Source of the DNA: a virus
Lineage: Duplodnaviria > Caudoviricetes
Length of the DNA: 41,683 nucleotides
Strand: one strand, 5' to 3'
IMG/VR virus record: IMGVR_UViG_3300045285_000066
Span: 1 to 41,683 of that record
Part shown: piece after piece, positions 507 through 39,334 of the stretch
Layout of the letters: each line of letters starts with the position of its first letter
How positions within the stretch are numbered: the stretch's first letter is position 1
Notes under the pieces: generated by a model
Database searches by the model: none
Told to the model about the DNA's origin: nothing
Seen by the model: only the letters and a program-made list of their open reading frames with translations
Program-made: the position numbers and the translations under genes

Positions 507-1306
507 CTGCCACGTCCGAATGGAATCTGGTGGCTGCTGGCCCGTCCCGCGTCCACCTTCGCACCTCGCATCTGCTGCGCGGCCCAGTCGTCACGGTGAA
601 CCGCGCGCTCGATATCGCCGGTCAAGGAATCCGCGTGGACTTTGCGGCGTTTGCTGATGGCCCGCAGCCGTGCTTCCTCGGTCTCGGCATGGAGCGCTTC
701 CTCATCCTCCAGCCGCACATACAGCTCTGGATCCCGCTGCGCGTCGTCACCAAGACGATCACGGTACAGCGTCCGCCGATGATGAAGAAGTTCGTCCCGG
801 CGCCGGCCTTCCTGACCTCCGTCGCCAAGATCCTGCCGCAGACCGCACACAAGGCGCTCCTGGAGTTCTCCAAGAAGTACCTGATGGAGGCGGGCGAGCA
901 GTTCACCGTCGAGGCTCCAGGCCCGACGCTCATGCACATCTGGGATCGTGCGCTTCCGGCGTCAACCGGCATGCGCGAGCTCCCGCACGGCACCGTGCTG
1001 GACGTGAACGACCAGACCAAGGGCAGGACGGCCTTCACGACCATCTGTGCCCTGGAGCGCATCTTCATGTTCCGGCCCAAGCGCGTGCGCATCCTCTGCG
1101 CCGACATGGCTGGACCCTGGATGGAGGGCAAGACTGAGGAGGAGTGCCACGAGGCGGAGAAGGCGAAGCCCAATCAGATGGGGCCGCCGCTCGACCGCTG
1201 GCGGCACGAGAAGTACGCCCTGGATGTCGCCATCAAGAAGGCTCAGGCGGAGTTCAAGGTTGAGGTGGACTGGGTGAAGCCTGAGCCTGAGTTGGTCACG
1301 GCATGA
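503..1306 (+). CDS. Putative glycosyltransferase-like protein (Maf/DUF115 or GT42-like Rossmann start); paralog of 25869..26504
   Basis: N-terminal LVAAGPS...GPVVTVNRAL and later KRVRILCADMAG resemble the GxGPS / VN / GxD motifs of these families. ATGA overlap with the upstream gene. Confidence 0.5.
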   Translation: MTATSEWNLVAAGPSRVHLRTSHLLRGPVVTVNRALDIAGQGIRVDFAAFADGPQPCFLGLGMERFLILQPHIQLWIPLRVVTKTITVQRPPMMKKFVPAPAFLTSVAKILPQTAHKALLEFSKKYLMEAGEQFTVEAPGPTLMHIWDRALPASTGMRELPHGTVLDVNDQTKGRTAFTTICALERIFMFRPKRVRILCADMAGPWMEGKTEEECHEAEKAKPNQMGPPLDRWRHEKYALDVAIKKAQAEFKVEVDWVKPEPELVTA

Positions 1307-1980
1307 CGGCAATCAACGTCGAGATGGATGCCTTCCTGCGCCAATTCAGCGCGCAGGACTACAAGCCCATCATCCCTGCGCGCAGCGGCTTCGAGGTGGG
1401 TGTGTCTCCATCCGAGGACGAGTACCTGATCCTGTGCGTCCTGCTGCGCGCCAGTAACGCTCTGAGCATCTTAGAGTTCGGTACGTGCGTCGGCGGATCC
1501 ACGCGCATCCTCGCTCTCAACGCACCGCACGCTCAGGTCTACTCGATCGACCTTCCAGTGCCTCGCAATGACACCAAAGACGAGCACGAGCAGTTCCTGG
1601 TGGACCTGGCGCAACGCGAGCCTTGCCTCCTAGCGCGCGACCTGCCGAACGTCGCGCTGCTCAAGGGCGACTCCAGGACGTACGACTACTCGGCTATCCC
1701 CGACTGTGACTTCATCTTCATCGACGGCGGGCACGACTACGCGACGGCGAAGTCGGACACATACAACGCCTTCCGGATGCTGAACCGGAACAACCCTCAC
1801 GCGATGATCGTCTGGCACGATTGCAGCAACGACATGACCCCGGACGTGACCAGGCTGACCGACGAGCTCTCCGAGAAGCTGCCGATCTTCGGGGTGCTGG
1901 GGTTCACCCTGCGCTACTACTCGCCCTGCCTGCGACCCGAACCGATCGAGGAGGCCCTGGATGGATCCGTCGTGCACTAG
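1303..1980 (+). CDS. Class I SAM-dependent methyltransferase (Methyltransf_24-like)
   Basis: ILEFGTCVGGST, YSIDLP, GDS, DFIFIDGGHDY and IVWHD motifs. Confidence 0.85.
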   Translation: MTAINVEMDAFLRQFSAQDYKPIIPARSGFEVGVSPSEDEYLILCVLLRASNALSILEFGTCVGGSTRILALNAPHAQVYSIDLPVPRNDTKDEHEQFLVDLAQREPCLLARDLPNVALLKGDSRTYDYSAIPDCDFIFIDGGHDYATAKSDTYNAFRMLNRNNPHAMIVWHDCSNDMTPDVTRLTDELSEKLPIFGVLGFTLRYYSPCLRPEPIEEALDGSVVH

Positions 1981-13801: not shown

Positions 13802-14139
13802 GCTTCAACCCCAAGACTCCGCAGCGCTTCTCTGGCCGTGCCGGCAGCACGTCGAGCGGTCGCCTGCGCCGTGCCCTAGACGGCCAGGTGGACTCCAGCC
13901 GCAAGTTCGGTGACACCCTGGAGGTGGACAAGGATGGGCGTCTTGGAACCCGCCTGGCGCGCGACAGCGGCCTCCAGATGACGCGCCAGGGACTGAAGCT
14001 CGACCCGATCGCGGTGGGCGACAAGAACCATGAACCCATGAAGTTCATTCGTGACCCGGTGTCCACGGCGGCTGCTGACGTTCATGCGACGCTGGTGGAG
14101 CTTTTGGCTGAGCTTCGCAGAAGCAAGAGGATGAAGTGA
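13798..14139 (+). CDS. Hypothetical virion-associated protein
   Basis: Start MSFNPK overlaps the upstream stop (ATGA). Confidence 0.6.
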   Translation: MSFNPKTPQRFSGRAGSTSSGRLRRALDGQVDSSRKFGDTLEVDKDGRLGTRLARDSGLQMTRQGLKLDPIAVGDKNHEPMKFIRDPVSTAAADVHATLVELLAELRRSKRMK

Positions 14140-14774
14140 AGCCTAGCCTCATCTGCATCACCGGCCTCATGCGCAGCGGTACCTCGCTGGTCGCTCAGAT
14201 CGTGCATCGACTTGGCTTCCAGGTGGCGCCATTCATCCCTGCCCCAATGCCGCCCAGCTGGCGCAGCGACTGGGAGGATCCTCGGATCACTATCGACCTC
14301 ATCCTGGGTGAGAAGATCGACTGGCACGAGTACATGCGAGGCCGCGCGCATCTCTCCAAGGCGACAGGCTTCCTTGGGCGCTACGCCATCAAGAGCCCGT
14401 ACCTCGCGCTGCGCTACGGCGCCATCAGCGAGGCAGCACCGGAAGCATTCTGGATCCGCTGTGAACGCCAGGAGGAGGCGGTGGATCGTTCCTTCAAGGC
14501 ACACCCGCAGCTGGATGACGTTGCCCAGTACCGCATCGACAAGGCGCTGCACACCTTCGACCCTCACATGATCGTCAGGTACGAGTACGTGCTCGAAGAG
14601 CCGCTGATGGCTGTCGAGCAGATGGCGAACACCCTCGGCGTTCACGATGTCGAACCCATCCAAGCCGCCGCCAACCTTGTCGGCCAACCTACGGAGTACA
14701 CATGCCCGCAATCCAAGATTCGGAAGTGTCACTACGCAAGAAACGCGGCTCGCGCCGCCAGAAAAGGAGGGTAA
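14136..14774 (+). CDS. Sulfotransferase-family (P-loop) protein
   Basis: ICITGLMRSGTSLVAQIVHRLG fits the PAPS-binding loop; IKSP and VRYEYVLEEP motifs also match. Confidence 0.75.
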   Translation: MKPSLICITGLMRSGTSLVAQIVHRLGFQVAPFIPAPMPPSWRSDWEDPRITIDLILGEKIDWHEYMRGRAHLSKATGFLGRYAIKSPYLALRYGAISEAAPEAFWIRCERQEEAVDRSFKAHPQLDDVAQYRIDKALHTFDPHMIVRYEYVLEEPLMAVEQMANTLGVHDVEPIQAAANLVGQPTEYTCPQSKIRKCHYARNAARAARKGG

Positions 14775-22431: not shown

Positions 22432-22980
22432 CTAGAACGGCGCCTCTTCTCGCTGCTGCTCAGGGATGGAGTCCAGCAGCGATTGCGCACGCCCACGCAT
22501 CCGCGCGTTGCTGGCCGCGTACTGCGGGTCCTTGTCGGCCAGGTTGGCTAGGAAGGATAGATACCCGCGGACTTGAGCACTTCCGCGAGCAAGGTGCTGA
22601 TGTGCTTCGGCCCAGGTGACCTCTCCCCATGGCTTGTTCCCAGGTCCGATCTTCTTTCCGAGCTTGATCTTGTCGTTGGCCCAAACGCGAAAGTCCTTCC
22701 CATCGACAGGGCCAGGCTCCTGCGCCACTGGCGCTCCGTAGGACTTCGCGGGCGGAGCCACTGAAGCCGTGTCGATCTTGTCGCCTGTTGGCCAACGAGC
22801 GGGCGGCGCCTGCTGCGGCACGCGCGGCGCTTCAGGATCCGGCACGCCAAACAGGTTCACGAATGTTTGGAATGCCTGTTGGCTGATGGCTTCAATCTCT
22901 TCGACTTTGAAAGCGCCAGAAGACATCGCATATTGAGTAATTGCGCAGCACCAAATGCGAGCATCTTGACTAGTCGGCAT
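22432..22980 (-). CDS. Hypothetical protein with C-terminal GK..G..W.EV...YL.FL module (DUF3820-like)
   Basis: Good SD (AAGAAGGA); directly downstream of the pentamer array. Confidence 0.55.
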   Translation of the reverse strand: MPTSQDARIWCCAITQYAMSSGAFKVEEIEAISQQAFQTFVNLFGVPDPEAPRVPQQAPPARWPTGDKIDTASVAPPAKSYGAPVAQEPGPVDGKDFRVWANDKIKLGKKIGPGNKPWGEVTWAEAHQHLARGSAQVRGYLSFLANLADKDPQYAASNARMRGRAQSLLDSIPEQQREEAPF

Positions 22981-23004: not shown

Positions 23005-23449
23005 GACGGCCAGACCTTACCGTTCCACTCTGGAACGTTCCGTGACGGACGCGCCGCTCCATGACGGCCAATCCATTCCCATCGTATCCGCTACATTCGA
23101 GGCCAGTTCGGCCAAGCCTTTCCTCGCGCTGCGCTGCCAAGCCCGACAGGTCCGTACGTAGACGGCCAATCCTGACCGGTACTTGCGCCACCGGACTCCA
23201 CGCCACCGGACGTTGACGGCCAAACCAGACCCGACGAAACGATTCCAGGCGTTCCCGCTCCAAGCCTCTCGAAGACGGCCATGCCATGCGCTACCCATCG
23301 TTGCGATGCACACCTATCCAATCGTTGACGGCCATGCCTTTACGAACGTTACTCATCCGCGCGCTACCCGACAACACGACGCCTTGCCGTACGACGACGG
23401 CCACTCCTAACAGCTCCGCACATTCGCGTCCGCTCCAATCCGGTCGTTG
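23005..23449 (-). ncRNA. Array of 8 putative guide-RNA units built from 5-nt modules (semi-constant triplet plus variable NN)
   Basis: GACGGCCA anchors (+ strand) at 23005, 23063, 23107 (variant TTCGGCCA), 23161, 23215, 23274, 23327 and 23396. Spacings 58, 44, 54, 54, 59, 53, 69 equal 4+5n, two of them 1 nt short. On the - strand the triplets are mostly GGC/GGT/GGA/CGT/CGC/CGA. Confidence 0.85.
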
Positions 23450-23974
23450 TCACTTTGCCCCGGCCGGTACGGTTGTCTTCACCGCGGCGATGAGTCGCCG
23501 CCATGCTGGGTCTGCGTCGAGGCCGAGCGACTCCACCCTAGCGCACGTCGAGCACATCGCGGCGTAGCACTCCAGTGAGAGCTGGCCCAACATGTTCGGA
23601 TCGCCGATCACCTCGCCGAGCGGCCGATACGACCTACGTGCCTCGCCGCCTTCGGCTACCGACATGACCGAGTGGAACATTCGCGCCGGCTTGCCGGTCT
23701 TCACGTTGACGACGTACACGCAACCCAAGAGCGCCTTCGCTCTATCCAGCCAGTGCGACTCCTGAGCCTCTTCCGGCGAGCAGTGGAAGACATCCTTGTG
23801 CGTGATGGCCTTCGGGTCTCGTGAGTAATCCACGAGGCCCTTGGCGGTGAGCGCGCCAACCTTCAGCAGCTCGTTGCCCGCCTTGGAGACGCGCTTGGCA
23901 ACATCTTCTCCGAAGGGTGAGTTCTCCAGCGGAGCAACTTTCCCCTTGCCCTTTAGGGTGCGCGTAGCCATCAC
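23450..23974 (-). CDS. Conserved phage protein, partner of the RAMP-like gene
   Basis: LTAKGLVDYSRDPKAITHKDVF...AQESHWLDRAKALL resembles a phage family I recall as LT...V..ARDP.SPLH..FEW...A...RL..AR.LI. Coupled to the RAMP stop. Confidence 0.7.
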   Translation of the reverse strand: MMATRTLKGKGKVAPLENSPFGEDVAKRVSKAGNELLKVGALTAKGLVDYSRDPKAITHKDVFHCSPEEAQESHWLDRAKALLGCVYVVNVKTGKPARMFHSVMSVAEGGEARRSYRPLGEVIGDPNMLGQLSLECYAAMCSTCARVESLGLDADPAWRRLIAAVKTTVPAGAK

Positions 23975-24711
23975 GCCATCTCCGGAGTGAAGACCTCGCC
24001 GCCCGTGATGCGGAAGCCGCCGTACATGCCCGAGCTCGACTTGCCAGTCAGGCGCCAGTCACCGACGCCGATGGAGCGGCCAGCGTTCAGGAACCAACCG
24101 AAGAGCTGGTCCTTCGACACCTTGCGGGCGTTGAAGCCGATGCGCAATCGGACCTTCCAGTGGTCGAACCGTGGGCGGATGCGGATGTCCACGGTGCCCT
24201 TCTGCCGCGCCACGTCCTGCTGCGGGTACGGCGGGCCGTCTAGGATGAGCGGCACCATGTTGGCGTCGCCTGGTTCGGTGATGATCCAGAACGAGGTCCG
24301 GGCGTCGATCTTGAAGAGATCGTCGTACTGGCTTGCCGCGGTGACTGCCGACTCCTTGAACATCACGGCTGGCATGGCGTAGCGGAACTTGCCGAGCGTG
24401 CCGTTGGCGATGTCATCCTTGCCGGGCCGAGGGCCGATGACGATCAGCGCTTCGAGGAAGCACAGCTCGACATCCTTGGGCTCCTTCTTCACCGACTTCT
24501 TGCCGGCCTGCTTGTCGAGGATCTGCTGCTTGATCCTGGCCGGAAAGTTGTTCTGGAGCATCGGCATCGTGGACTCCAGGTCCAGAATGAGTTCGCCGGT
24601 TGACAGGCCGTGCCAGTCGTCGATCTCGATGCGCTGGAACTTCTTCTCAGCAGGAGAGGCGAGGCGGTTGACTCCGTTGCTCTCGTGCGCCACTGACTTC
24701 TTCGTTGCCAT
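23971..24711 (-). CDS. Cas7/RAMP-like RNA-binding protein (solo, phage-encoded)
   Basis: N-terminal strand LILDLESTMPML, then MPAVMFKESAVTAA, RIRPRFDHWKVRLRI and a C-terminal glycine-rich loop AGRSIGVGDWR...SGMYGGFRI. This is the RAMP motif order. Confidence 0.8.
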   Translation of the reverse strand: MATKKSVAHESNGVNRLASPAEKKFQRIEIDDWHGLSTGELILDLESTMPMLQNNFPARIKQQILDKQAGKKSVKKEPKDVELCFLEALIVIGPRPGKDDIANGTLGKFRYAMPAVMFKESAVTAASQYDDLFKIDARTSFWIITEPGDANMVPLILDGPPYPQQDVARQKGTVDIRIRPRFDHWKVRLRIGFNARKVSKDQLFGWFLNAGRSIGVGDWRLTGKSSSGMYGGFRITGGEVFTPEMA

Positions 24712-24744: not shown

Positions 24745-24773
24745 ACTCTACCAGACCTTGCGGAAACAGTCAA
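24745..24773 (-). promoter_or_regulatory. Sigma70-type promoter for the RAMP operon
   Basis: - strand TTGACT-17 nt-TAGAGT, followed by SD AAAGGA before the ATG at 24711. Confidence 0.7.
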
Positions 24774-25507: not shown

Positions 25508-25750
25508 TCAGCCTGCCTGCCCGCGTTCCCGTTCCTGGCGGCGCTTCTCCCACCGGCTGCCCATGTTCTGCCGCCCCATCTCCTGCATGCGCTCGTGGAG
25601 CTTCCTGACGCCCAGCCGGTGCGCCATGTCCATGATCGCGCCTGGGGAGCGGCCTGGGAACGCCTGGGAGAGCTTGGTGTAGGAGATCGCCGGGTAGTGC
25701 CTGGCGAGGGTCTTCTTCTCGTCTTCCGACCAGGGTGTGTTGTAGGGCAT
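25508..25750 (-). CDS. Small Myb/SANT-like HTH DNA-binding protein
   Basis: MPYNTPWSEDEKKTLARHYP...LSQAFPGRSPGAIMDMAHRLGVRK. Confidence 0.7.
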   Translation of the reverse strand: MPYNTPWSEDEKKTLARHYPAISYTKLSQAFPGRSPGAIMDMAHRLGVRKLHERMQEMGRQNMGSRWEKRRQERERGQAG

Positions 25751-25868
25751 GCTTCCGCTTCCTGCCCAGCGCCTGCCGGGCATGCGGGAACATAGTTTCA
25801 AGCGCATCAAGTGGGTAGCGTCAACTGGCGTGGTCGCCCTACCGCCCCGCTTCGCCCAGTGGCCGGAG

Positions 25869-26504
25869 GTGCCCTCGGAGTGCGTCAACGTGCTCTGTGA
25901 GGGTCCGTCCATCCGCGACCTGAAGCCCGAGCACCTCCTGCCAGGCCCGGTTGTCGCCGTCAACCACGCCCTCTCGCTCTCCGGCCTCGTGCCGGTGAAC
26001 GTCTGGGCGACGATCGACGACCCCAAGCTCCTCTGGGCCTGGGCGCAGCCCCACCTCCACGGCAAGGCCAAGATCTTCTCGACCGAGAACAACATCAAGT
26101 TCTGGTACGACCTCCTGGGCGAGGATGGCTTCAACGAGCGCCTATACTGCTGGGTTCCGACCTACATGGAGCACCTGGCCACGCCCGAGATCAAGGCGCC
26201 GGTGATCCCGACCGTCACCACGACGCTCGCATGGATCGGGAACATGCCGGCCGTCAAGCGCGTGCGACTCTTCGGCTGCGACATGGTTGGATCGAACAGC
26301 CCACTTTCGGAAGAAGCCTTCTCTGAAGAGGAGGACATCGGGTGGGAGTTTCGCTGGGATACCGAGCGCACGCTTTTGGCGCTCATGACCAAGAAGTACC
26401 GCGAGCGCGGGAAAAGGATAGAAAGATGGGTGAAGGCCCCTCACGTCTCAAGGAATTTGTTGTCCTCGTGGTCAAAGACGAAGCAACTGGAAAGGTCGTG
26501 CTGA
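25869..26504 (+). CDS. Putative glycosyltransferase-like protein; paralog of 503..1306 (start uncertain: 25749, 25782 or 25869)
   Basis: VLCEGPSIRDLKPEHLLPGPVVAVNHAL and KRVRLFGCDMVG align with the 503 protein. Confidence 0.55.
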   Translation: MPSECVNVLCEGPSIRDLKPEHLLPGPVVAVNHALSLSGLVPVNVWATIDDPKLLWAWAQPHLHGKAKIFSTENNIKFWYDLLGEDGFNERLYCWVPTYMEHLATPEIKAPVIPTVTTTLAWIGNMPAVKRVRLFGCDMVGSNSPLSEEAFSEEEDIGWEFRWDTERTLLALMTKKYRERGKRIERWVKAPHVSRNLLSSWSKTKQLERSC

Positions 26505-27004
26505 GACGGGAGATCGGCCCGAACATTGTCACGACCTTCGGCGACAAGTACTACGCGCAGTCTGCTGCGCGCAACTCCAGCAACGCCTTTGTTGCCACTC
26601 CGTCGATCACGTTCCACCGTGGGATGTTGGTCGTCGCCAAGAGCTACGGCAACGGCAGTGGTGCGCCAGGAAAGCTCAGCACGTTCCGGGGGTTCACAGG
26701 CATCGCTACGTCGCTCTCTGGCCGCCAGAGCTTTGATGCCGGTTACCCGAAGACGGGCGACACCGACACGGACAACACTGGCCGCACGGCTGATGCCCTG
26801 ACGTACAAACGCACCTATGCGACGAACCAGGCGAACTACACGATCAAGGCTCTTGGCATCTGCCAGTACCTGGCGTCGTCTGGCAGTGCCGCTGGCATTC
26901 GCCAGCTGCTATCCGCGAAGGCGCTTACTGCGGCGCAGCAGGTCACAAAAACGAGCTCACAGACGCTCGTTGTGTATGTGAATCATACCTTCCAGGGCGT
27001 GTAG
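26426..27004 (+). CDS. Tail/appendage structural protein
   Basis: NIVTTFGDKYYAQ N-terminus and VTKTSSQTLVVY C-terminus, as in tail collar/fiber attachment proteins. Confidence 0.55.
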   Translation: MGEGPSRLKEFVVLVVKDEATGKVVLRREIGPNIVTTFGDKYYAQSAARNSSNAFVATPSITFHRGMLVVAKSYGNGSGAPGKLSTFRGFTGIATSLSGRQSFDAGYPKTGDTDTDNTGRTADALTYKRTYATNQANYTIKALGICQYLASSGSAAGIRQLLSAKALTAAQQVTKTSSQTLVVYVNHTFQGV

Positions 27005-27007
27005 GCC

Positions 27008-28195
27008 ATGACTCAGCCTGATATCCTCTTCGTCATTTTCGACGATTTGTGGATAGGTGATGTCACGCCTACCCTGATGCCGAACGCTACAGCCTTCGCG
27101 GCAACGGGCGGCGCGCGCACCTTCACCCACTGCTACTCGATGCCGGTCTGCTCGCAGTCGAGAGCTTGCATGCTGTACGGCAAGTACGGGCGCAACCTCA
27201 GCCCGCCCATCATCGGCGGCATGGACTCCAGCGCCGGCCCGGAGCCCGACAGCGACATGGAGACGGTCGCCACGCTGCTCCAGGACAACGGCTACCAGAC
27301 GTGCCTGGTCGGCAAGTGGCATGGCGGCCGGAACCCGTTCAACGCGAGCAGCCTGTACGTGGGCGCCCCGCAAGCGCGCGGCTTCCAGTCGTGGGTGGCC
27401 GGTACCCCAGACAACATCGACGACTTCTACTCCTGGCCACGAGTAGACGACGAGGGCGCTGGCGTGGCCCTGACCACCGAGACCCAGTACGCGACAGCCG
27501 CGCAGCTCGCCGCGGCGCAGGGCTGGTGGGAGACGGCCGACAGCTCGCCGCGCTTCATGCAGGTCAGCTTCAGCGCGCCGCATGGACCCTACAACTTCCC
27601 GCCCACCAATGAGCTCAACGGCTTCGTGAGCACAGCTCACGCGCTCAACCGCCAGAAGTACGAGAGCGAGATCCGCTCGGTGGACTGGGCCTTCGGCGAG
27701 CTCCTGGCGACCGTAGGCTCGGATGCGGTCGTGGTGTGCGTGGGCGACAACGGAACCCCGAACAACGCCCGCGCTCCAGGCCAGCAGGCGAACAAGGTCA
27801 AGGCTACCTGCTACGAGGGCGGCATCCGCGTGCCTCTCGCTGTACGCTCGCCCAAGTACCCGTCTGGCACGAGCGACCGGCTGTGTCACATCGTGGACAT
27901 CCCTGCGACGCTCCTGGTGGCCGCAGGGATCACCGTACCGAGCGGATGGGACGGAAGGTCTCTCACCCTCTCGGCCCGCACCACGGCGCTCTCAGAGGCC
28001 CAGGACGGGGCGAGCGGCGGCGGGCATCTGGTGCGCGCTGCCATGACCAGCCAGTACAAGCTACTGCGCACGGACAGCGACCCGGAAGAGCTCTACAACC
28101 TTCTGACCGACCCGACCGAAGTCGCGCCCCTCAGCCTCACGGCCCCTGCCAACGCCTCCATCCTGGCAACGCTCCGCGAGGTTCTTGACGGCTAA
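27008..28195 (+). CDS. Sulfatase (formylglycine-dependent arylsulfatase family)
   Basis: PDILFVIFDDL, CSQSRACMLYG, VGKWH, APHGP, GDNG, YEGGIRVPL, HIVDIPATL and ELYNLLTDPTE motifs. Confidence 0.92.
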   Translation: MTQPDILFVIFDDLWIGDVTPTLMPNATAFAATGGARTFTHCYSMPVCSQSRACMLYGKYGRNLSPPIIGGMDSSAGPEPDSDMETVATLLQDNGYQTCLVGKWHGGRNPFNASSLYVGAPQARGFQSWVAGTPDNIDDFYSWPRVDDEGAGVALTTETQYATAAQLAAAQGWWETADSSPRFMQVSFSAPHGPYNFPPTNELNGFVSTAHALNRQKYESEIRSVDWAFGELLATVGSDAVVVCVGDNGTPNNARAPGQQANKVKATCYEGGIRVPLAVRSPKYPSGTSDRLCHIVDIPATLLVAAGITVPSGWDGRSLTLSARTTALSEAQDGASGGGHLVRAAMTSQYKLLRTDSDPEELYNLLTDPTEVAPLSLTAPANASILATLREVLDG

Positions 28196-30145
28196 GTGCC
28201 CAAGGCACAGAGGGCTCCAGGCTTCTCAATGGGCAGCGCAGCCGTAGATGTCGTGACTGTAGCTGCCATCACTGGCGGCGGACCGACACAGACGATCACA
28301 GGGAACCTCGGCGGACAGACGCCGAAGGCGGTCATCATCTACGCCACGCGCTGCGTGACGGTCGGCACGATCATCGACGGAGGGATGCTCTCGGTCGGGA
28401 TGACGGACGGCACCAACCAGTTCGTCAACTCCTGGGTGGCTGAGGATGGCGTCGCCAACAACGCGAACTACCACACCAACAGACGCTTCGACAGCGCGAA
28501 GCTGGTGCAGATCTGCGACACCGCAGGCGCTGGCGTCCTGGACGGCGAAGCGTCGTTCAGCAGCTTCGGAGCGAACACCGTCACGATCAGCTGGAACGAC
28601 CTCCCGAGCACTGCGGTCCAGCTTGTGGTGGTCTTCTTCTATGGCAGCGCTCTGAGCGCTGCGGTCGGACAGATCACGGCATCGAGCACGCAAGATCTGA
28701 GCGCGACTGTCTCCGGATTGGCCTTCGCCCCCAACGCGCTGCTGTTCGCCACGGCTTTGAATGCCTATGCGGCCGGTGGAACGACAGCCACGGACAGCGC
28801 TTCGATTGGCGTCGCCGTCACGCAAGGCGGCACGATCACTCAATCCGGGCTCGGATGGGTGAACCGAGACGGAGGCGGCACGACGGCGACCGTCGGCAGC
28901 ACGATGCTGCGCAACGACGCCTGCATGGCACGCCTCAGCGTAACAGCGGGCGGCACCGGCTCGCTGGTGGCATCCTACGATGTGACGAGCTTCACCAACG
29001 ACGGCTTCGTTATGTTCACGCGCGTCGGCTCGTCTCCGGTCGTTGCGATGTACCTGGCGCTGAACACGGATGGTCAGCGAGTGTGGGTGGGCAATCCTTC
29101 GCTCACCACAAGCTCAACTGGCGACAAGGCGATCACGTCGCCGGGATGGAAGCCGACCGCGCTCTTTATGTGCGGCACGGCGATCAACACCATCAACACC
29201 CAGGCGGATGACACGCAGGCGACGCACGTCTCGATCGGCGTGGCCACGGCGTCCAGCCAGGCATCAGCCTCCTACGAGGTGAAGGATGCCGTGGCTAACT
29301 CGGACACCCGCTGCCTGGTGCAGTCCAAGATCGTCGCCGTGCCAGACGACGTAGGCACGATCGACTGGAGCGGCAGCATCACGACCTTCGATGCGACCGG
29401 CTTCACGCTCAACGTCGATGACGCCTCGGCAGCCGACAGGTTGGTGTGGGCCTTCGCCATCGAGCAGCCCTTCTTGGCGATCGGCGATACCGAGCAGATC
29501 TCGGACTCGCCCGTCCTCAAGATCACCATTCAGCGCCGGGTGTCGAACGACACCGAGAACATCTCGGACACGCCGCGCCTCTTGGTGACGATCGACCGCA
29601 GGGTCTCGAACGACACCGAACAGATCTCAGACAACGCGATCCTGGCGGTGACGATCAACCGCCGAGTGGTCGCCGAGGTGGAGCAGATCTCCGACTCAGC
29701 CATCTTCGCCACCACAGACCGCAAGGTCTTCGGAGACACGGAGCAGATCAGCGACGCAGCCATCTTCCGGGTCACGTCGGACAGGACGACGTTCAACGAC
29801 ACCGAGCAGATCAGCGAGGCCGCGATCCTGGTGCGCGGCAACATCGCCTCGTTCTCCGAGACCGAGCAGGTGATCGACTCCATCGTCACCCTGCTTCAGG
29901 CGTCGATGGGCGCGACGGTCTTCGGTGACGTGGAGGACATCAGCGATGCCGCAGTCCTGGCGCTGCGCACGGCCTTCATGGGCTTCAGCGAGACCGAGCA
30001 GATCAGCGATGCGGCGGTGCTGCGCCTTGGCCGGGTGCTGGTGGTGAACGAGATCGTGGACATCCTGGACGGCTTCGTGGGTGGCGGCTCTGGTGGCCTG
30101 CACGCCATCAAGCTCAAGCGGGCTGGGAGGGTCTTCCAGTGGTAG
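28196..30145 (+). CDS. Tail fiber/appendage protein with C-terminal DTEQISD repeats (start may be 28229)
   Basis: T/G/A/S-rich beta protein with about 10 C-terminal repeats of 20-23 aa. Confidence 0.65.
   Translation: MPKAQRAPGFSMGSAAVDVVTVAAITGGGPTQTITGNLGGQTPKAVIIYATRCVTVGTIIDGGMLSVGMTDGTNQFVNSWVAEDGVANNANYHTNRRFDSAKLVQICDTAGAGVLDGEASFSSFGANTVTISWNDLPSTAVQLVVVFFYGSALSAAVGQITASSTQDLSATVSGLAFAPNALLFATALNAYAAGGTTATDSASIGVAVTQGGTITQSGLGWVNRDGGGTTATVGSTMLRNDACMARLSVTAGGTGSLVASYDVTSFTNDGFVMFTRVGSSPVVAMYLALNTDGQRVWVGNPSLTTSSTGDKAITSPGWKPTALFMCGTAINTINTQADDTQATHVSIGVATASSQASASYEVKDAVANSDTRCLVQSKIVAVPDDVGTIDWSGSITTFDATGFTLNVDDASAADRLVWAFAIEQPFLAIGDTEQISDSPVLKITIQRRVSNDTENISDTPRLLVTIDRRVSNDTEQISDNAILAVTINRRVVAEVEQISDSAIFATTDRKVFGDTEQISDAAIFRVTSDRTTFNDTEQISEAAILVRGNIASFSETEQVIDSIVTLLQASMGATVFGDVEDISDAAVLALRTAFMGFSETEQISDAAVLRLGRVLVVNEIVDILDGFVGGGSGGLHAIKLKRAGRVFQW
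29483..30070 (+). repeat. Coding tandem repeat, ~60-69 bp units encoding (G/N/S)(D/E)TEQISD...
   Basis: Recurrent gacaccgagcagatc-like units; three further copies at about 31365..31510. Confidence 0.8.
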
Positions 30146-31635
30146 ACCTGAAGACCGCGATCATCGAGGCTACCGTTCCGAACAGCACTGGCACCGTTGA
30201 CTACACGTCCAGCAGCATCACCAACTGGAGCGGCGGCGGTCTGGCCTTGATATTCGTGTCTGGCGACACTGCCGCCCCTACATTTGGAGGTCTGCTTTCT
30301 ATTGCATTGGTTGCTTCAGGCGGAGGCCAGCAGGCGCAAGCCTGGAGCGCAACAACAGGATCAACGACTATACCGGAAGACCACGAGGCGTCCGTCAACG
30401 ACCATGCAGTAATCATTCTCGATGTGTTCACCGGGACAACATTCGCATCTATTGCGCGAGCTCAATTCTCTTCCGCGCTATCCAATGGCGTGCGATTGAA
30501 CTGGACTAGCGTATCGGGAGTTGGATCTCGAACGTTCAAGATTGTCGTCGTGCTCATCGAGGGATTTACGAATGTAGCCACAGGCAACGCAGGATCTTTC
30601 TCGTACGGCTTCCAAGCGGATGCACTGATCCATATTCCGAACGGAAACTCCGGCGACGAAGCTTGGGCGCCAGCGAATCGCAACGCCCACGAAAATAGCC
30701 CAGGACTCGGGGGAGTGTTGCGAAATGGAGGCTTGACTCAGAAGTCAGCGTATGTTGTATCCGACAGAAACCAAGACCCGCTGGTGTCACGCGGCGGTCG
30801 GCGCACAACGGCATGGTGCGCAAGCGCGGATGGCATCACTGAGCGAGTTGGAACCGTAACCGCGATAGGCCCCTCAGGGCTAACGCTAAGCGGCACTAGT
30901 CGCGGGATGTATGCCGCGTTCAAGTCTAACGGCGTAGGCGACTATGCCCTAGCGCTTGAGACGCTGGACGGCGGCACGGGGACAAAGAGCTTCACCGGCC
31001 TCGGCACTAAATGCGCTCTTATTGTTGGCTTCGTGTGTGGAGTAACTAGCGACGACACCTTCGAGACAGATTCATCTGCTCTCGCACCATTCGCGTACTT
31101 CGTAACTGATGGCACTACCACCATATCGCTCGGCTTCTCCCAGAAGCACAACGGAGTTGCCATCGCGGCTGGAAACCCGACCTCTACATACTCTAGCTAT
31201 GCCAACGGGTCGATCTTGATGCTCGACCACCTCAACGCGACGGAGTTCGCGGCGACGGTCTCCAGCATCGACGCGACGGGCCTGACGCTCTCGGTGACGA
31301 ACGGACTTTCGGGTACGATGATGCTCTTCGGCTTCAAGCAGGGCACCGCCCTGGTCGTCTCCAGCGACACCGAGCGCATCTCCGACACGCCGGCCTTCAA
31401 CCTCATCAGCCGCCGGCCACTGACCGACACGGAGAGGATCTCGGAAGCCTCGGTCTTCCATGTGACGGAGCACAAGGCGTTCCCTGAGGTGGAGCAGATC
31501 TCCGACAGCGTCGGCGGCCTGGTACTCGTGGATGCCCGTCCAGGCATCGGCCCCATCGGGGCCGTCTTCCAGGGTGGTGCCGTCGCCGGCAGGGTCATGC
31601 AGGGCGGCGTTGAGGCGGCCGAGGTGGAAGGCTAG
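30139..31635 (+). CDS. Second tail fiber/appendage protein, distant paralog of 28196..30145
   Basis: Shares TG.K..T..G.K, IDATG.TL.V and DTE.ISD repeats. The central part has AT-richer codon usage. Confidence 0.65.
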   Translation: MVDLKTAIIEATVPNSTGTVDYTSSSITNWSGGGLALIFVSGDTAAPTFGGLLSIALVASGGGQQAQAWSATTGSTTIPEDHEASVNDHAVIILDVFTGTTFASIARAQFSSALSNGVRLNWTSVSGVGSRTFKIVVVLIEGFTNVATGNAGSFSYGFQADALIHIPNGNSGDEAWAPANRNAHENSPGLGGVLRNGGLTQKSAYVVSDRNQDPLVSRGGRRTTAWCASADGITERVGTVTAIGPSGLTLSGTSRGMYAAFKSNGVGDYALALETLDGGTGTKSFTGLGTKCALIVGFVCGVTSDDTFETDSSALAPFAYFVTDGTTTISLGFSQKHNGVAIAAGNPTSTYSSYANGSILMLDHLNATEFAATVSSIDATGLTLSVTNGLSGTMMLFGFKQGTALVVSSDTERISDTPAFNLISRRPLTDTERISEASVFHVTEHKAFPEVEQISDSVGGLVLVDARPGIGPIGAVFQGGAVAGRVMQGGVEAAEVEG

Positions 31636-31644
31636 AGTGCCGGC

Positions 31645-32175
31645 ATGAGCTCGGAGCCGAGAGTCTACAAATCGTGCCAGAACTACCGAGGGCAGTACCC
31701 TGTCCCGCCGGAGCTCATGCGGCGCTTCTGGGCTGGCGTCGGCAAGCGTTCCTTTGATGTCTGCTGGCCGTTCCGCAACGGAAAGTGGTACGGGCAGATC
31801 CAGCACGAAGGAGAACTCGTGCGCACACACCGCCTGAGCTGGATCATCCACAACGGCGAGATTCCTCCGCGCGGTTGCATCTGCCACAAGTGCGACAACC
31901 CGCCGTGCAGCAACCCGACGCACCTGTTCCTGGGCAGCTACCGCGACAACATCATGGATGCCCGCGCCAAGGGGCGCATGGTGACAACAGAAGCGTGCAT
32001 ACGGCGCGGAGAGGCAAACAACAAAGCCAAACTCACGGCGGCGAAGGTCACGGAAATCAGGGCGCTATACGCAACCGCCACGCGCAATCAGGTCCAGCTG
32101 GCCTCCGACTACAGCGTAACGCAAGCAGCAATCTGGGCTGTCCTCAACAGGAAGACGTGGAAGCATGTCCAGTGA
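31645..32175 (+). CDS. HNH homing endonuclease with C-terminal HTH
   Basis: CWPF...YG...THRLSW...ICHKCDNPPCSNPTHLFLG...DN..D and AKLT...V.EIR motifs. Confidence 0.92.
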   Translation: MSSEPRVYKSCQNYRGQYPVPPELMRRFWAGVGKRSFDVCWPFRNGKWYGQIQHEGELVRTHRLSWIIHNGEIPPRGCICHKCDNPPCSNPTHLFLGSYRDNIMDARAKGRMVTTEACIRRGEANNKAKLTAAKVTEIRALYATATRNQVQLASDYSVTQAAIWAVLNRKTWKHVQ

Positions 32176-32554
32176 GCCTAGAGTCTGGAAAAGTTGTGTT
32201 TGGGAACTGGGCACCATCAAGCCCAGAGCCCGGATGACGAACGAGGACGATGACGTGCTCGTGCAGGCCGACTTCACGGGCACGGTGACGCTCAACGTAT
32301 TCGACCTCTCCAGCTCAACTCCTACCACGGCAGCCTTCACGGCTACCCGCACTCTGGCGAACGTGGTCTTCAACTCCCTGCAACCCTGGACGCTGGACCC
32401 TGATGGGTACAACCTTGGGGACACGATCACGACTAACGAGCTCGCCCGAGAGGGCGGCCACCAGTACCGGATCGAGTACCTACTACACCACGTCACCGAT
32501 GGGCTTTACGCCGTAGCCTTCGAGGTGCGGGCAGAGCCTCTACTGAGCTCCTAG
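32165..32554 (+). CDS. Small beta-rich virion-associated protein (putative)
   Basis: End of the tail block; its N-terminus duplicates that of the upstream HNH gene. Confidence 0.6.
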   Translation: MSSEPRVWKSCVWELGTIKPRARMTNEDDDVLVQADFTGTVTLNVFDLSSSTPTTAAFTATRTLANVVFNSLQPWTLDPDGYNLGDTITTNELAREGGHQYRIEYLLHHVTDGLYAVAFEVRAEPLLSS

Positions 32555-32556
32555 CC

Positions 32557-32703
32557 ATGCCCAGCAAATCAGCCAAGCAAGCCCGCCTGATGGCAGCCGC
32601 ATGCCACGGCAAGACCCGCAACAAGATCAGCAAGAAAGTAGCTTGTGAATTCAACCGCAGCGATCGAGGAACAGGCATCCTCCGCGGCAAGCGCCGTAAG
32701 TAA
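32557..32703 (+). CDS. 48-aa basic phage protein (below the ORF-track cut-off)
   Basis: MPSKSAKQARLMAAACHGKTRNKISKKVACEFNRSD... matches the recurrent small phage family MPSKS.KQAR.MAA..H...VAKEF. Confidence 0.7.
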   Translation: MPSKSAKQARLMAAACHGKTRNKISKKVACEFNRSDRGTGILRGKRRK

Positions 32704-33739
32704 GCGCTGCACGCGCTGCAAGTTAGAGAAGCACACCTCGGCCTTCCTATGGAAGCGCCCTAGACCTAACCGGGCTGGAGAATGGGCCTCGCGGTGCCGA
32801 GACTGCACCAGCTTCCGCCTTCGCGAAATGCGCGCTGAGAGCAAGCGTGTGGCCGCAAGCCTCCCTGAGTCGTTCCCTGAGAGCAAGGTGTGCAGCAACT
32901 GCAAGGTCGAGAAGCCGCGCGCTGAGTTCCACAAGCGCCGCAGCTACACCAAGTGGATCCTGAAGAGCGAGTGCAAAGCATGCACCCGCATCCTGACACG
33001 CGCCTGGTGCCACAAGAACCCAGAGCGCACCAAGGACCGTGCACGTGAGTACCACCGCAGAATGGCTTCCAACGCCAAGCTGGCAGCCAAGCTGACGCCC
33101 GAGCAGCTGGACGTAGCGCGTCGGATGCTGATCGACCACCCGCAAGACCTAGCCAACGAGGAAGAACGAGCGGCCTACGCTCGCGGCTTCATGGCTGGCG
33201 CCAAGCGCACGCACGAAGAAGGTGAGCACTTCGAGCGCCTGAAAGACCTCTGCCACCGCGTAGCCTCAGAGGGCAAGGTCTGGGGGCACGCATACGAGGA
33301 TCGTCTTTCGGCGGCCTACGAGGGCCTGCTAGCATTCATCCGTGGCAGCCACCGGCGCGACTTCAACGACGTAGAGCATGAGCGCAAGGTCGCAGCCAAG
33401 GCGATCCGCTACAGCCTGATGGATCATGCACGAGCGAATGGCCCGCGCACGCGCGGGGGGGCGCAGCGCTATCAGCCTGCCGTTGGCCACGCCGATGAAG
33501 AATTCTGTCCGCTTGAGGCATCAGCGGTTGCGCCGCAGTCCGCGTTGCCATCCGAGGCCCTAGACCTCATCGACATCGAGCCTCGCTCCAGGGCGATACT
33601 GGAGGGCATCCTGGATGGCAGGACGTACAAGGAGATGGGTGAAAAGTTCGGCATCACCGAAAGCCGCGCATGCAAGCTGGCCAAGGAGGTAGGCCAAGAC
33701 CACCCAGAGCTAGAGAGCATGCTTCTTGCGGCTCTCTAG
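32645..33739 (+). CDS. Tandem zinc-ribbon domains fused to a sigma70-family (FliA-like) region 2 plus region 4
   Basis: CTRC/CRDC and CSNC/CKAC pairs. DRLSAAYEGLL...AKAIRYSLMDHAR fits region 2; GRTYKEMGEKFGITESRACKL fits the region 4 HTH. Confidence 0.7.
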   Translation: MNSTAAIEEQASSAASAVSKRCTRCKLEKHTSAFLWKRPRPNRAGEWASRCRDCTSFRLREMRAESKRVAASLPESFPESKVCSNCKVEKPRAEFHKRRSYTKWILKSECKACTRILTRAWCHKNPERTKDRAREYHRRMASNAKLAAKLTPEQLDVARRMLIDHPQDLANEEERAAYARGFMAGAKRTHEEGEHFERLKDLCHRVASEGKVWGHAYEDRLSAAYEGLLAFIRGSHRRDFNDVEHERKVAAKAIRYSLMDHARANGPRTRGGAQRYQPAVGHADEEFCPLEASAVAPQSALPSEALDLIDIEPRSRAILEGILDGRTYKEMGEKFGITESRACKLAKEVGQDHPELESMLLAAL

Positions 33740-38439: not shown

Positions 38440-38576
38440 CTTGTCTTCGTCCCTTCTTCATAGCGGGCTGCGTGATGTGCTCGTGCTCGAAGTGCGGCAA
38501 CCGTAAGTCGTCCACCGACACATACGCCTAATAGAAAAAAGAATACAGCGTAGAATATAAATCCTGTCAGTGTCAT
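38430..38576 (-). CDS. Small membrane protein
   Basis: MTLTGFIFYAVFFFLLGVCVGG; ATGA coupling. Confidence 0.5.
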   Translation of the reverse strand: MTLTGFIFYAVFFFLLGVCVGGRLTVAALRARAHHAARYEEGTKTRWS

Positions 38577-39334
38577 TTGTAGCACCCTCCGCGCTCCTGC
38601 CCCACGGAGCAGTATGGGTGTTTGCACTTCCAGCTCTTCTGTCCCTTGACCAAGGGTAGCTCTGGGTAGCTGGTAGGGTCGAGTGTGCCTTGCGCATGAC
38701 GGATAAGGATACCTTCAACCTCGCGTAGGCGGGTCTGATACCGCTCTTCCAGCTCTTCCGTCCATGGCACCTCCAGCTCGATGAGCTGGCCGCCCTTGAC
38801 GCCCTTCCTGGCGTCCGAGTCCTTGGCCTCGTAGACGATGAAGGATCGGATGGTCTCCGGGCGCTTGGTGGGCTTTGTGTGTTCGTCGTAGTCACCAGCC
38901 AGCGAGTACACATTTGCCTCTGCGATGCCATCCCGGTACGCGTGCACCTGGAGCTTGTAGTCCTCGCTCACGCCTTCGCTGGACAGCAAGCCAGCGCCGT
39001 AGCTGCCCACGGTCTTGAAGTCCACCAGGGTACGCAGGCTCGGGATCCATAGGTCTGCCGTGCCTGTGAGGGTGAACTTCCCTGCGGGCAGGCGCACGGG
39101 CACCTGAGAGCGTGCGTCGGGCCAGATCTGTTTGGAAGCAGCTTCCAGGGCTTCGCCGCGCTGGTGGCCGAGCTCGAATGTGCGGCGGGTCTCGGGTGAG
39201 AGCGGGAAAGGCTCCATGCCCACCTGGAGCCAGGCCAGCTTGCGCAGACAATCGCCGAGGCTAGAGGGCGAGATGCGGAACTCGCGTTCCTCTTTCTGCT
39301 CGGCGTACCAGGCGTCTATGGCGTCAGCTATCAC
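38573..39334 (-). CDS. Cas4-like PD-(D/E)XK exonuclease
   Basis: ISPSSLGDCLRK, GTAD, LVDFKT, QVHAY and C-terminal C...C...C (four-Cys Fe-S pattern). Confidence 0.85.
   Translation of the reverse strand: MIADAIDAWYAEQKEEREFRISPSSLGDCLRKLAWLQVGMEPFPLSPETRRTFELGHQRGEALEAASKQIWPDARSQVPVRLPAGKFTLTGTADLWIPSLRTLVDFKTVGSYGAGLLSSEGVSEDYKLQVHAYRDGIAEANVYSLAGDYDEHTKPTKRPETIRSFIVYEAKDSDARKGVKGGQLIELEVPWTEELEERYQTRLREVEGILIRHAQGTLDPTSYPELPLVKGQKSWKCKHPYCSVGQERGGCYK

Follow-up and report, generated by a model that had tools for sequence, protein, structure and literature searches.

A probable VIPR guide array of the staggered type in an uncultured phage, with one guide matching a conserved integrase motif

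VIPR systems combine the gene vipr, an accessory gene and an array of pentamers, and their guides are read by a one-base-skip code in which one base is left unread after every dinucleotide (10.64898/2026.04.26.720920). In the staggered vrRNA arrays of that study the guides overlap by one base, as stated in the legend of its fig. S18, and GGY>GGA was among the scaffold mutants tested (10.64898/2026.04.26.720920). For the type II system of SUSP1, the available part of 10.64898/2026.04.26.720927 reports that residues R138, D177, W178 and R179 of Vipr grip the scaffold and that the pocket excludes purines at scaffold position 3. In the available part of 10.64898/2026.10.15.759431, a wobble-aligned SUSP1 guide on the active-site codons of a satellite recombinase leaves the satellite integrated, and this guide is needed for productive infection.

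Here, we observed a pentamer array of related anatomy beside a gene for a RAMP-fold protein akin to Vipr, 5n+4 junctions in related loci and a guide that matches an integrase motif. We conclude, with a probability of roughly 0.88, that the array supplies the guides of a phage VIPR system formed with the adjacent vipr and accessory genes, and that it likely serves to silence genes of rival elements in the host. The original prediction for this DNA gave no family name, drew no connection from the array to the adjacent RAMP gene and implied high novelty; the last point does not hold, since the VIPR system and the staggered array have been described (10.64898/2026.04.26.720920). Published work already covers staggered arrays, relaxed scaffolds and guides against recombinases, as well as the system itself and its logic, so that the locus is not a discovery of kind. 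It does extend VIPR to a divergent clade of soil phages, ~30% identical to the relatives in cultured phages.

The window analysed is a whole virus record of 41,683 bases, for which a soil metagenome run may be the source. The staggered vrRNA array occupies 23005..23449 on the minus strand and consists of eight abutting units of NN+(G/C)G(A/C/T) pentamers; its first base on that strand directly follows the stop of ORF 23974-23450. Units of a 4-nt anchor plus 8-13 pentamers had been predicted, and indeed, GACGGCCA was found at 23005, 23063, 23161, 23215, 23274, 23327 and 23396, with a degenerate eighth junction at 23107. The spacings along the array are 58, 44, 54, 54, 59, 53 and 69, of which five (44, 54, 54, 59, 69) have the expected 4+5n form. 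The two units that had been quoted are present letter for letter (23161-23214 and 23215-23273), and the pattern is real on the plus strand on which it was read; the meaningful strand is the minus strand. There, seven of the eight units end in T-GGC-CGTC and one ends in CGAA, at the degenerate junction (23107). Also as predicted, units 1, 3 and 8 each contain one 4-nt module; at that module the parse of these units is ambiguous, and unit 8 was re-parsed.

By its 5n+4 abutting guides, with neither a tail nor a ribozyme between them, the array agrees with the definition of staggered arrays in the legend of fig. S18 of 10.64898/2026.04.26.720920. Like the staggered VIPR systems described there, it belongs to a phage-encoded set of vipr, accessory gene and pentamer array with units offset by one base, and its guides are of similar length (8-13 modules here, 9-16 published; 10.64898/2026.04.26.720920). 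Unlike them, it has a (G/C)G(A/C/T) scaffold instead of GGY and a GGC-CGTC junction. The structured 3' tail of type II VIPR is not present: the junctions are 4 nt long and the array RNA folds no more stably than shuffles (z=+1.14), whereas a pseudoknot tail of ~40 nt separates the guides of SUSP1. The combination of a loose scaffold with a tail-less 4-nt junction makes both the GGY requirement and the processing of staggered arrays directly testable.

The periodicity was compared with 2000 dinucleotide shuffles. Autocorrelation gave z values of 5.1, 5.0 and 6.7 at lags 5, 10 and 15, which none of the shuffles reached, and of -2.4 at lag 3; the maximum of the whole window sits in the array (0.38 vs a peak of 0.31 elsewhere). 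Over the 80 regular modules, the two NN positions are near maximal in entropy (1.96 and 1.95 bits), in line with the original prediction. The scaffold triplet, for which low entropy had been expected at all three positions, is tight at its middle base alone (1.27, 0.34 and 1.66 bits at positions 1, 2 and 3). Position 1 is G or C in 74 modules, position 2 is G in 75, and position 3 is A, C or T in 79 and G in one; strict GGY is found in 28 of the 80. The VIPR pentamer is thus present only as a related consensus.

Five ORFs of 75-105 codons overlap the array and lag 15 gives the strongest peak, as might be expected if the region were a protein-coding repeat; replication-origin or protein-binding iterons and a chance pattern have to be weighed along with it. 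However, lags 5 and 10 are as clear, lag 3 lies below the shuffles, and none of the five ORFs matches PHROGs; a conserved coding repeat had been named beforehand as one outcome that would overturn the prediction. Moreover, the variable positions decode to a motif of an external gene, and most related loci have an array of this architecture beside Vipr, both described below. Readings of this kind are largely refuted, and we give them next to no weight.

A CRISPR layout, with direct repeats alternating with contiguous spacers, is not present in the array. Tandem Repeats Finder has no entry at the array region, as had been foreseen, and Rfam gave no match to the array. An ORF of 182 aa with a purine-rich ribosome-binding site (22432-22980, minus strand) begins 25 nt past the last guide. 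There is no terminator-like site on the minus strand between the last guide and this ORF, and the array may be co-transcribed with it. Between the window and a contig from the run that is its likely source there are two differences in 4 kb, and only one of them, 23227, is within the array, at an NN position of guide 4; coming from one contig at a depth of ~6, this is only a hint of guide variation.

The vipr gene (23971..24711, minus strand) encodes a protein of 246 aa with a RAMP (Cas7-like) fold and the G-loop GVGDWR, and matches phrog_4652. A sigma-70-like promoter with an extended -10 was matched at 24745..24773 on the minus strand, 34 nt upstream of the vipr start; the call is a consensus match only, with 2 sites in 2.8 kb vs 0.3 in shuffles. 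Pfam gave no match to the 246-aa ORF. Among 177,635 PDB sequences, the sole match was 36pp_D, the Vipr of SUSP1, with E 3.3e-4, and this became 9e-13 with a profile of 140 sequences (the 6 first matches plus 134 of the 150 relatives listed, out of 3568 at E<=0.001). The predicted structure has a mean pLDDT of 93, and its top Foldseek matches are Csm, Cmr and Cas7-11 RAMPs (library to April 2026). Judged from sequence and predicted structure, the 246-aa protein is a RAMP-fold protein homologous to described Vipr.

When aligned with the type II Vipr of SUSP1 (PDB 36pp; residue numbering taken via the Mooglevirus Mijalis protein), the protein keeps R138, D177, W178 and R179, here R179, D218, W219 and R220, and differs in having Asn for H17 and Ile for C173. 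That Asn in place of His17 accounts for the looseness at scaffold position 1 was considered and rejected, for the related loci L013, L023 and L024 have Asn yet G at 0.88-1.00. Close relatives of the protein (59-81% identity) are known as proteins on short contigs only; 301 Planctomycetota genomes contained no close Vipr relative and 5 distant matches.

Apart from vipr with its G-loop and thumb, the locus has the further VIPR features of a single accessory gene, the absence of a CRISPR array and a viral genome. Class 1 CRISPR-Cas systems (Cas7/Csm3/Cmr4) and phage mini-CRISPR arrays share with it the RAMP fold and a guide array by the effector gene. They differ in the alternation of repeats and spacers, whereas information is interleaved with scaffold here, and the 54 ORFs hold no other cas genes except a Cas4-like exonuclease 14 kb away (38573-39334, minus strand; PHROG 1706/1674/1990).

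The accessory (vap-like) gene (23450..23974, minus strand) encodes 174 aa and overlaps the vipr stop. When its protein was compared with 1311 ORFs from 25 related loci, the top 11 matches all lay directly after vipr, and a second search round placed the accessory family there in 17 of the 25 loci; a profile of these relatives matched the 174-aa protein with E 2.3e-10. The protein is conserved in relatives at 66-72% identity. Compared with the genes that follow vipr in Mooglevirus Mijalis and LESphi2, it showed no detectable similarity (E 0.14 and 0.24), and the accessory gene, unlike that of SUSP1, is not detectably Vap1. Pfam gave no match, to a nuclease or otherwise, the Atlas search returned unnamed viral clusters only, and the predicted fold (pLDDT 46) was too poor for comparison.

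The 25 related viral loci carry a Vipr relative at 25-35% identity; five of them are near-identical mycobacteriophage records. Clustered pentamer runs were found in 23 of the 25, and the register shifted by 4 mod 5 at 80 of 86 junctions between adjacent runs. Measured with the same script, the GGY share is 0.37 here; the median of 23 related loci is 0.85, and 20 of them have a higher share than this array. This low share, the one-base deletion in three units and the six guides without a target would fit a VIPR locus in which drift has left the array dead, in part or entirely, with the loose scaffold and the 4-nt modules as decay and the guide 2 match as a relic. The departures are ordered, however, with G at position 2 in 75, G at position 3 in one and G or C at position 1 in 74 of the 80 modules. 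Seven of the eight junctions are identical, and the two genes are intact and show conservation, with relatives at the identities given above. In addition, non-canonical scaffolds beside Vipr-like genes are reported in the available part of 10.64898/2026.10.21.760802. Decay is therefore an improbable explanation, and a working guide array remains our preferred reading.

Relaxed triplets beside a Vipr-like gene are also known from the NNNGG, YNNNG and NNNNG arrays of 10.64898/2026.04.26.720920 and, in the available part of 10.64898/2026.10.21.760802, from GAC/NN, CAC/NN, WGT/NN and TGH/NN arrays. The (G/C)G(A/C/T) scaffold is not among the examples in the passages covered, the list in fig. S10 of the latter study aside. 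Two of the related loci (L006:3624-3905 and L020:5221-5443) likewise have mostly non-GGY pentamers (GGY share 0.19-0.20), with a T-rich third position and the 4 mod 5 shift kept. In the mycobacteriophage-type loci L008-L012, staggered arrays lie upstream of vipr and the accessory gene is of the same family as here. The Vipr relatives of cultured Mycobacterium and Gordonia phages are annotated as hypothetical; these loci are ready bench models for staggered arrays. In a VIPR locus of a Planctomycetota genome (L166, G148:C236), vipr lies between canonical GGC arrays, and the junction between the tracts is a longer, irregular motif.

Guide 2 (23327..23395, minus strand) has 13 modules. Read in antisense with a one-base skip, it decodes to [IM][FL][DE][FL][HQ]ALRTT[FL]VT, which we take to be a tyrosine-recombinase motif with H-x-L-R presumably as its catalytic box. 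On this recognised motif, guide 2 was the guide picked for a single genome scan, in which 10 of its 13 dinucleotides (20 bases) were searched exactly in 185,579 genomes. The scan returned 23 exact sites in 19 assemblies, where uniform base use would predict ~1. Every site falls within DFHALRTTFV in one and the same orientation, the skipped base being the third of the codon (wobble), and the guide would pair with the coding strand. The sites match 23-25 of the 26 guide bases, no target having all 26, and the skipped positions vary (0.6-1.6 bits over 20 distinct sites).

A second search, in 151 Planctomycetota genomes with 24 bases and <=3 mismatches, gave 15 places in 9 genomes, 14 of them in an integrase-like frame; the reversed pattern gave 0. 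Of these 15, four had already been obtained in the first scan: three are in the centre genome, and the fourth, L076, is the same contig as L026. The ORFs at L033, L034, L044, L045 and L092, which are four loci of the 23-site scan and one of the 151-genome search, were confirmed as PF00589. As a control, the skip was varied in the first 101 of these genomes: a one-base skip gave 11 places, a two-base skip 0 and a three-base skip 1. The NN of guide 2 decode to a gene motif under the one-base skip and not under the longer ones, which bears out the earlier claim that information is interleaved with the scaffold. Viral contigs held no exact match to an 11-dinucleotide pattern of guide 2.

Guide 2 matches a conserved integrase motif under the one-base-skip rule, and the target is wobble-aligned as in the published systems. 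The guide reads the first two bases of each codon, so that synonymous mutations would give no escape. Because it spells the catalytic motif of an integrase, its likely role for the phage is to turn off competing mobile elements. This resembles SUSP1, in which, according to the available part of 10.64898/2026.10.15.759431, a guide also lies on the catalytic region of a competitor's recombinase gene with synonymous escape barred. The target here is a tyrosine recombinase across several phyla, whereas that of SUSP1 is a serine recombinase of one E. coli satellite family. It is a second kind of recombinase target and supports the view that the skip code serves to pin the catalytic codons of competing elements. 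In the searched text of the three VIPR papers and the language-model paper, figures, tables and data files aside, the term 'tyrosine recombinase' was not found.

Going by the titles of the records, the 23 sites fall into 14 in Planctomycetota lineages, 6 in Verrucomicrobia/Kiritimatiellia/Lentisphaeraceae, 1 in Omnitrophota and 2 in Gammaproteobacteria, so that Planctomycetota or related phyla hold 21 of them. From these target locations only, the host is likely a member of Planctomycetota or a related phylum, and the decoded guide is thereby a host clue for an uncultured phage. 'Planctomycet' is absent from the main text of 10.64898/2026.10.15.759431 and from the supplement PDF of 10.64898/2026.04.26.720920; the figures, tables and data files may name targets of this sort or the scaffold.

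By analogy with SUSP1, a leftward transcript of vipr, vap and the array would start from the promoter-like site at 24773 and be split at each 4-nt junction to give eight guides of ~45-70 nt. Each pentamer would be bound by one Vipr subunit, with the scaffold triplet hidden and the dinucleotide presented, and the dinucleotides would pair with double-stranded DNA, every third base being skipped, and block transcription without cutting. A is found at scaffold position 3 in 29 modules, which together with the GGY share runs contrary to the SUSP1 pocket; since that pocket excludes purines, some modules may load poorly. With guide 2 on the recombinase motif, a resident prophage or satellite would stay integrated.

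A different mode of action, in which mRNA is bound or cut as by a Cas7 of type III, or cleavage or recruitment is contributed by the accessory protein, has in its favor that the nearest solved folds in the Foldseek search are RNA-targeting proteins, that guide 2 is antisense to its target gene and that the accessory protein is uncharacterised. On the other hand, guide 5, if real, has the same sense as the gene it matches, in agreement with DNA targeting, and published Vipr binds double-stranded DNA and represses from either strand (10.64898/2026.04.26.720920). The lack of any Pfam match in the accessory protein also speaks against an added nuclease step. Such a route is very unlikely in our view, and we retain transcriptional silencing by VIPR guides.

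Guide 5 (23161..23214, minus strand; 10 modules) has a tentative target in the NPGGPGNP motif of a small DUF5681-like gene. Its sense decode is [KN]PGGPG[KN]P[HQ], and a one-base-skip, wobble-aligned reading is tentative here. Eight exact viral matches were found, 2 in the small family, 3 in one family of ~550-residue ORFs and 3 elsewhere, and the 151 genomes had 4 places vs 0 for the control, 3 of the 4 in the small-protein family. One viral member of the small family is a DUF5681 gene just before the genes for the terminase large subunit and the portal, another lies at the end of an island that also has DUF3987, AlpA and an integrase-like ORF, and a third is near a PriCT primase-domain gene. 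From its position, the DUF5681-like gene is probably the small terminase; in the available part of PMC8954984, DUF5681 is listed only as a protein recovered from phage particles. Because the motif is of low complexity and GC-rich, with 6 of the 8 viral matches in other genes, we put the DUF5681-like gene as the target of guide 5 at about even odds. If it is the target, guide 5 would shut down a gene that likely serves packaging in prophages or satellites.

The target genes of guides 2 and 5 occur in one locus just once, in a Planctomycetota genome (L090:1-15157, G009:C57) that has an integrase-like ORF, DUF3987, AlpA and HTH genes and the DUF5681-like gene in an island resembling a phage satellite. 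A broader reading, which we hold as possible but doubtful, is that of a VIPR clade with a rewired (G/C)G(A/C/T) scaffold, whose class-wide guides would lock in and starve a family of islands and in which T-GGC-CGTC would be the cut signal for Vipr or the accessory protein. If this were true, the guides would address an integrase motif common to at least 19 genomes of several phyla and a packaging motif, not one satellite.

Six of the eight guides are without a target, and the predictions set beforehand for guides 1, 3, 6 and 8 failed or stayed at control level. No target was found for guide 1 (23396..23449, minus strand; 10 modules, one of 4 nt). As a guide to the DUF5681-like family, its best score in that family was 14/20, and it had 4 matches vs 5 for controls, with 3 viral matches in unrelated genes. 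For guide 3 (23274..23326, minus strand; 10 modules, one of 4 nt), again without a target, the decode presumably resembles an IS4-like motif. This was rejected: its 60 viral low-GC matches are scattered over unrelated genes and frames, which is how chance matches look and differs from the look of the guide 2 sites. Guide 4 (23215..23273, minus strand; 11 modules), likewise without a target, had 0 viral matches, 5 metagenome matches in two unrelated kinds of genes, and 4 places vs 1 for the control. A serine recombinase was rejected as its target: 1 of the 4 places is in a serine-recombinase-like ORF, but on 30 PF00239 loci guide 4 did no better than shuffles.

The decode of guide 6 (23107..23160, minus strand; 10 modules, degenerate CGAA junction; no target found) we took to resemble an IS1595 transposase motif. 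The candidate was dropped with 0 viral matches, 0 in 5 genomes and 2 places vs 1 for the control in 251 genomes, and its suggestive match is antisense within an unrelated ORF of 519 codons. Guide 7 (23063..23106, minus strand; 8 modules) was compared with the loci analysed here and its own genome only. Guide 8 (23005..23062, minus strand; 11 modules, one of 4 nt) also has no target; when it was tried on the integrase family of guide 2, its best score of 15/20 lay outside integrases, with 0 viral matches, and in 151 genomes it had 0 places vs 2 for controls. In the parses tested, no guide had a self-target of >=80% in its own genome, the best scores being 63-79%; the absence of self-targets is shared with the published staggered systems.

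The remaining genome has no terminal repeat in the window and no integrase among the 54 ORFs scanned. Matches to portal/adaptor and virion proteins suggest a podovirus-like phage. A block of plus-strand genes (25749-33739) lies between two minus-strand regions and includes a sulfatase (27008-28195, PF00884), an HNH gene and two large ORFs without a Pfam or PHROG match. In the ORF at 32645-33739 (plus strand), an endonuclease VII-like part is joined to an ECF sigma-like part. Among the virion genes, a weak sulfotransferase match and a methyltransferase are found at 14136-14774 and 1303-1980 (plus strand); these two and the sulfatase possibly have functions in surface-glycan or DNA modification.
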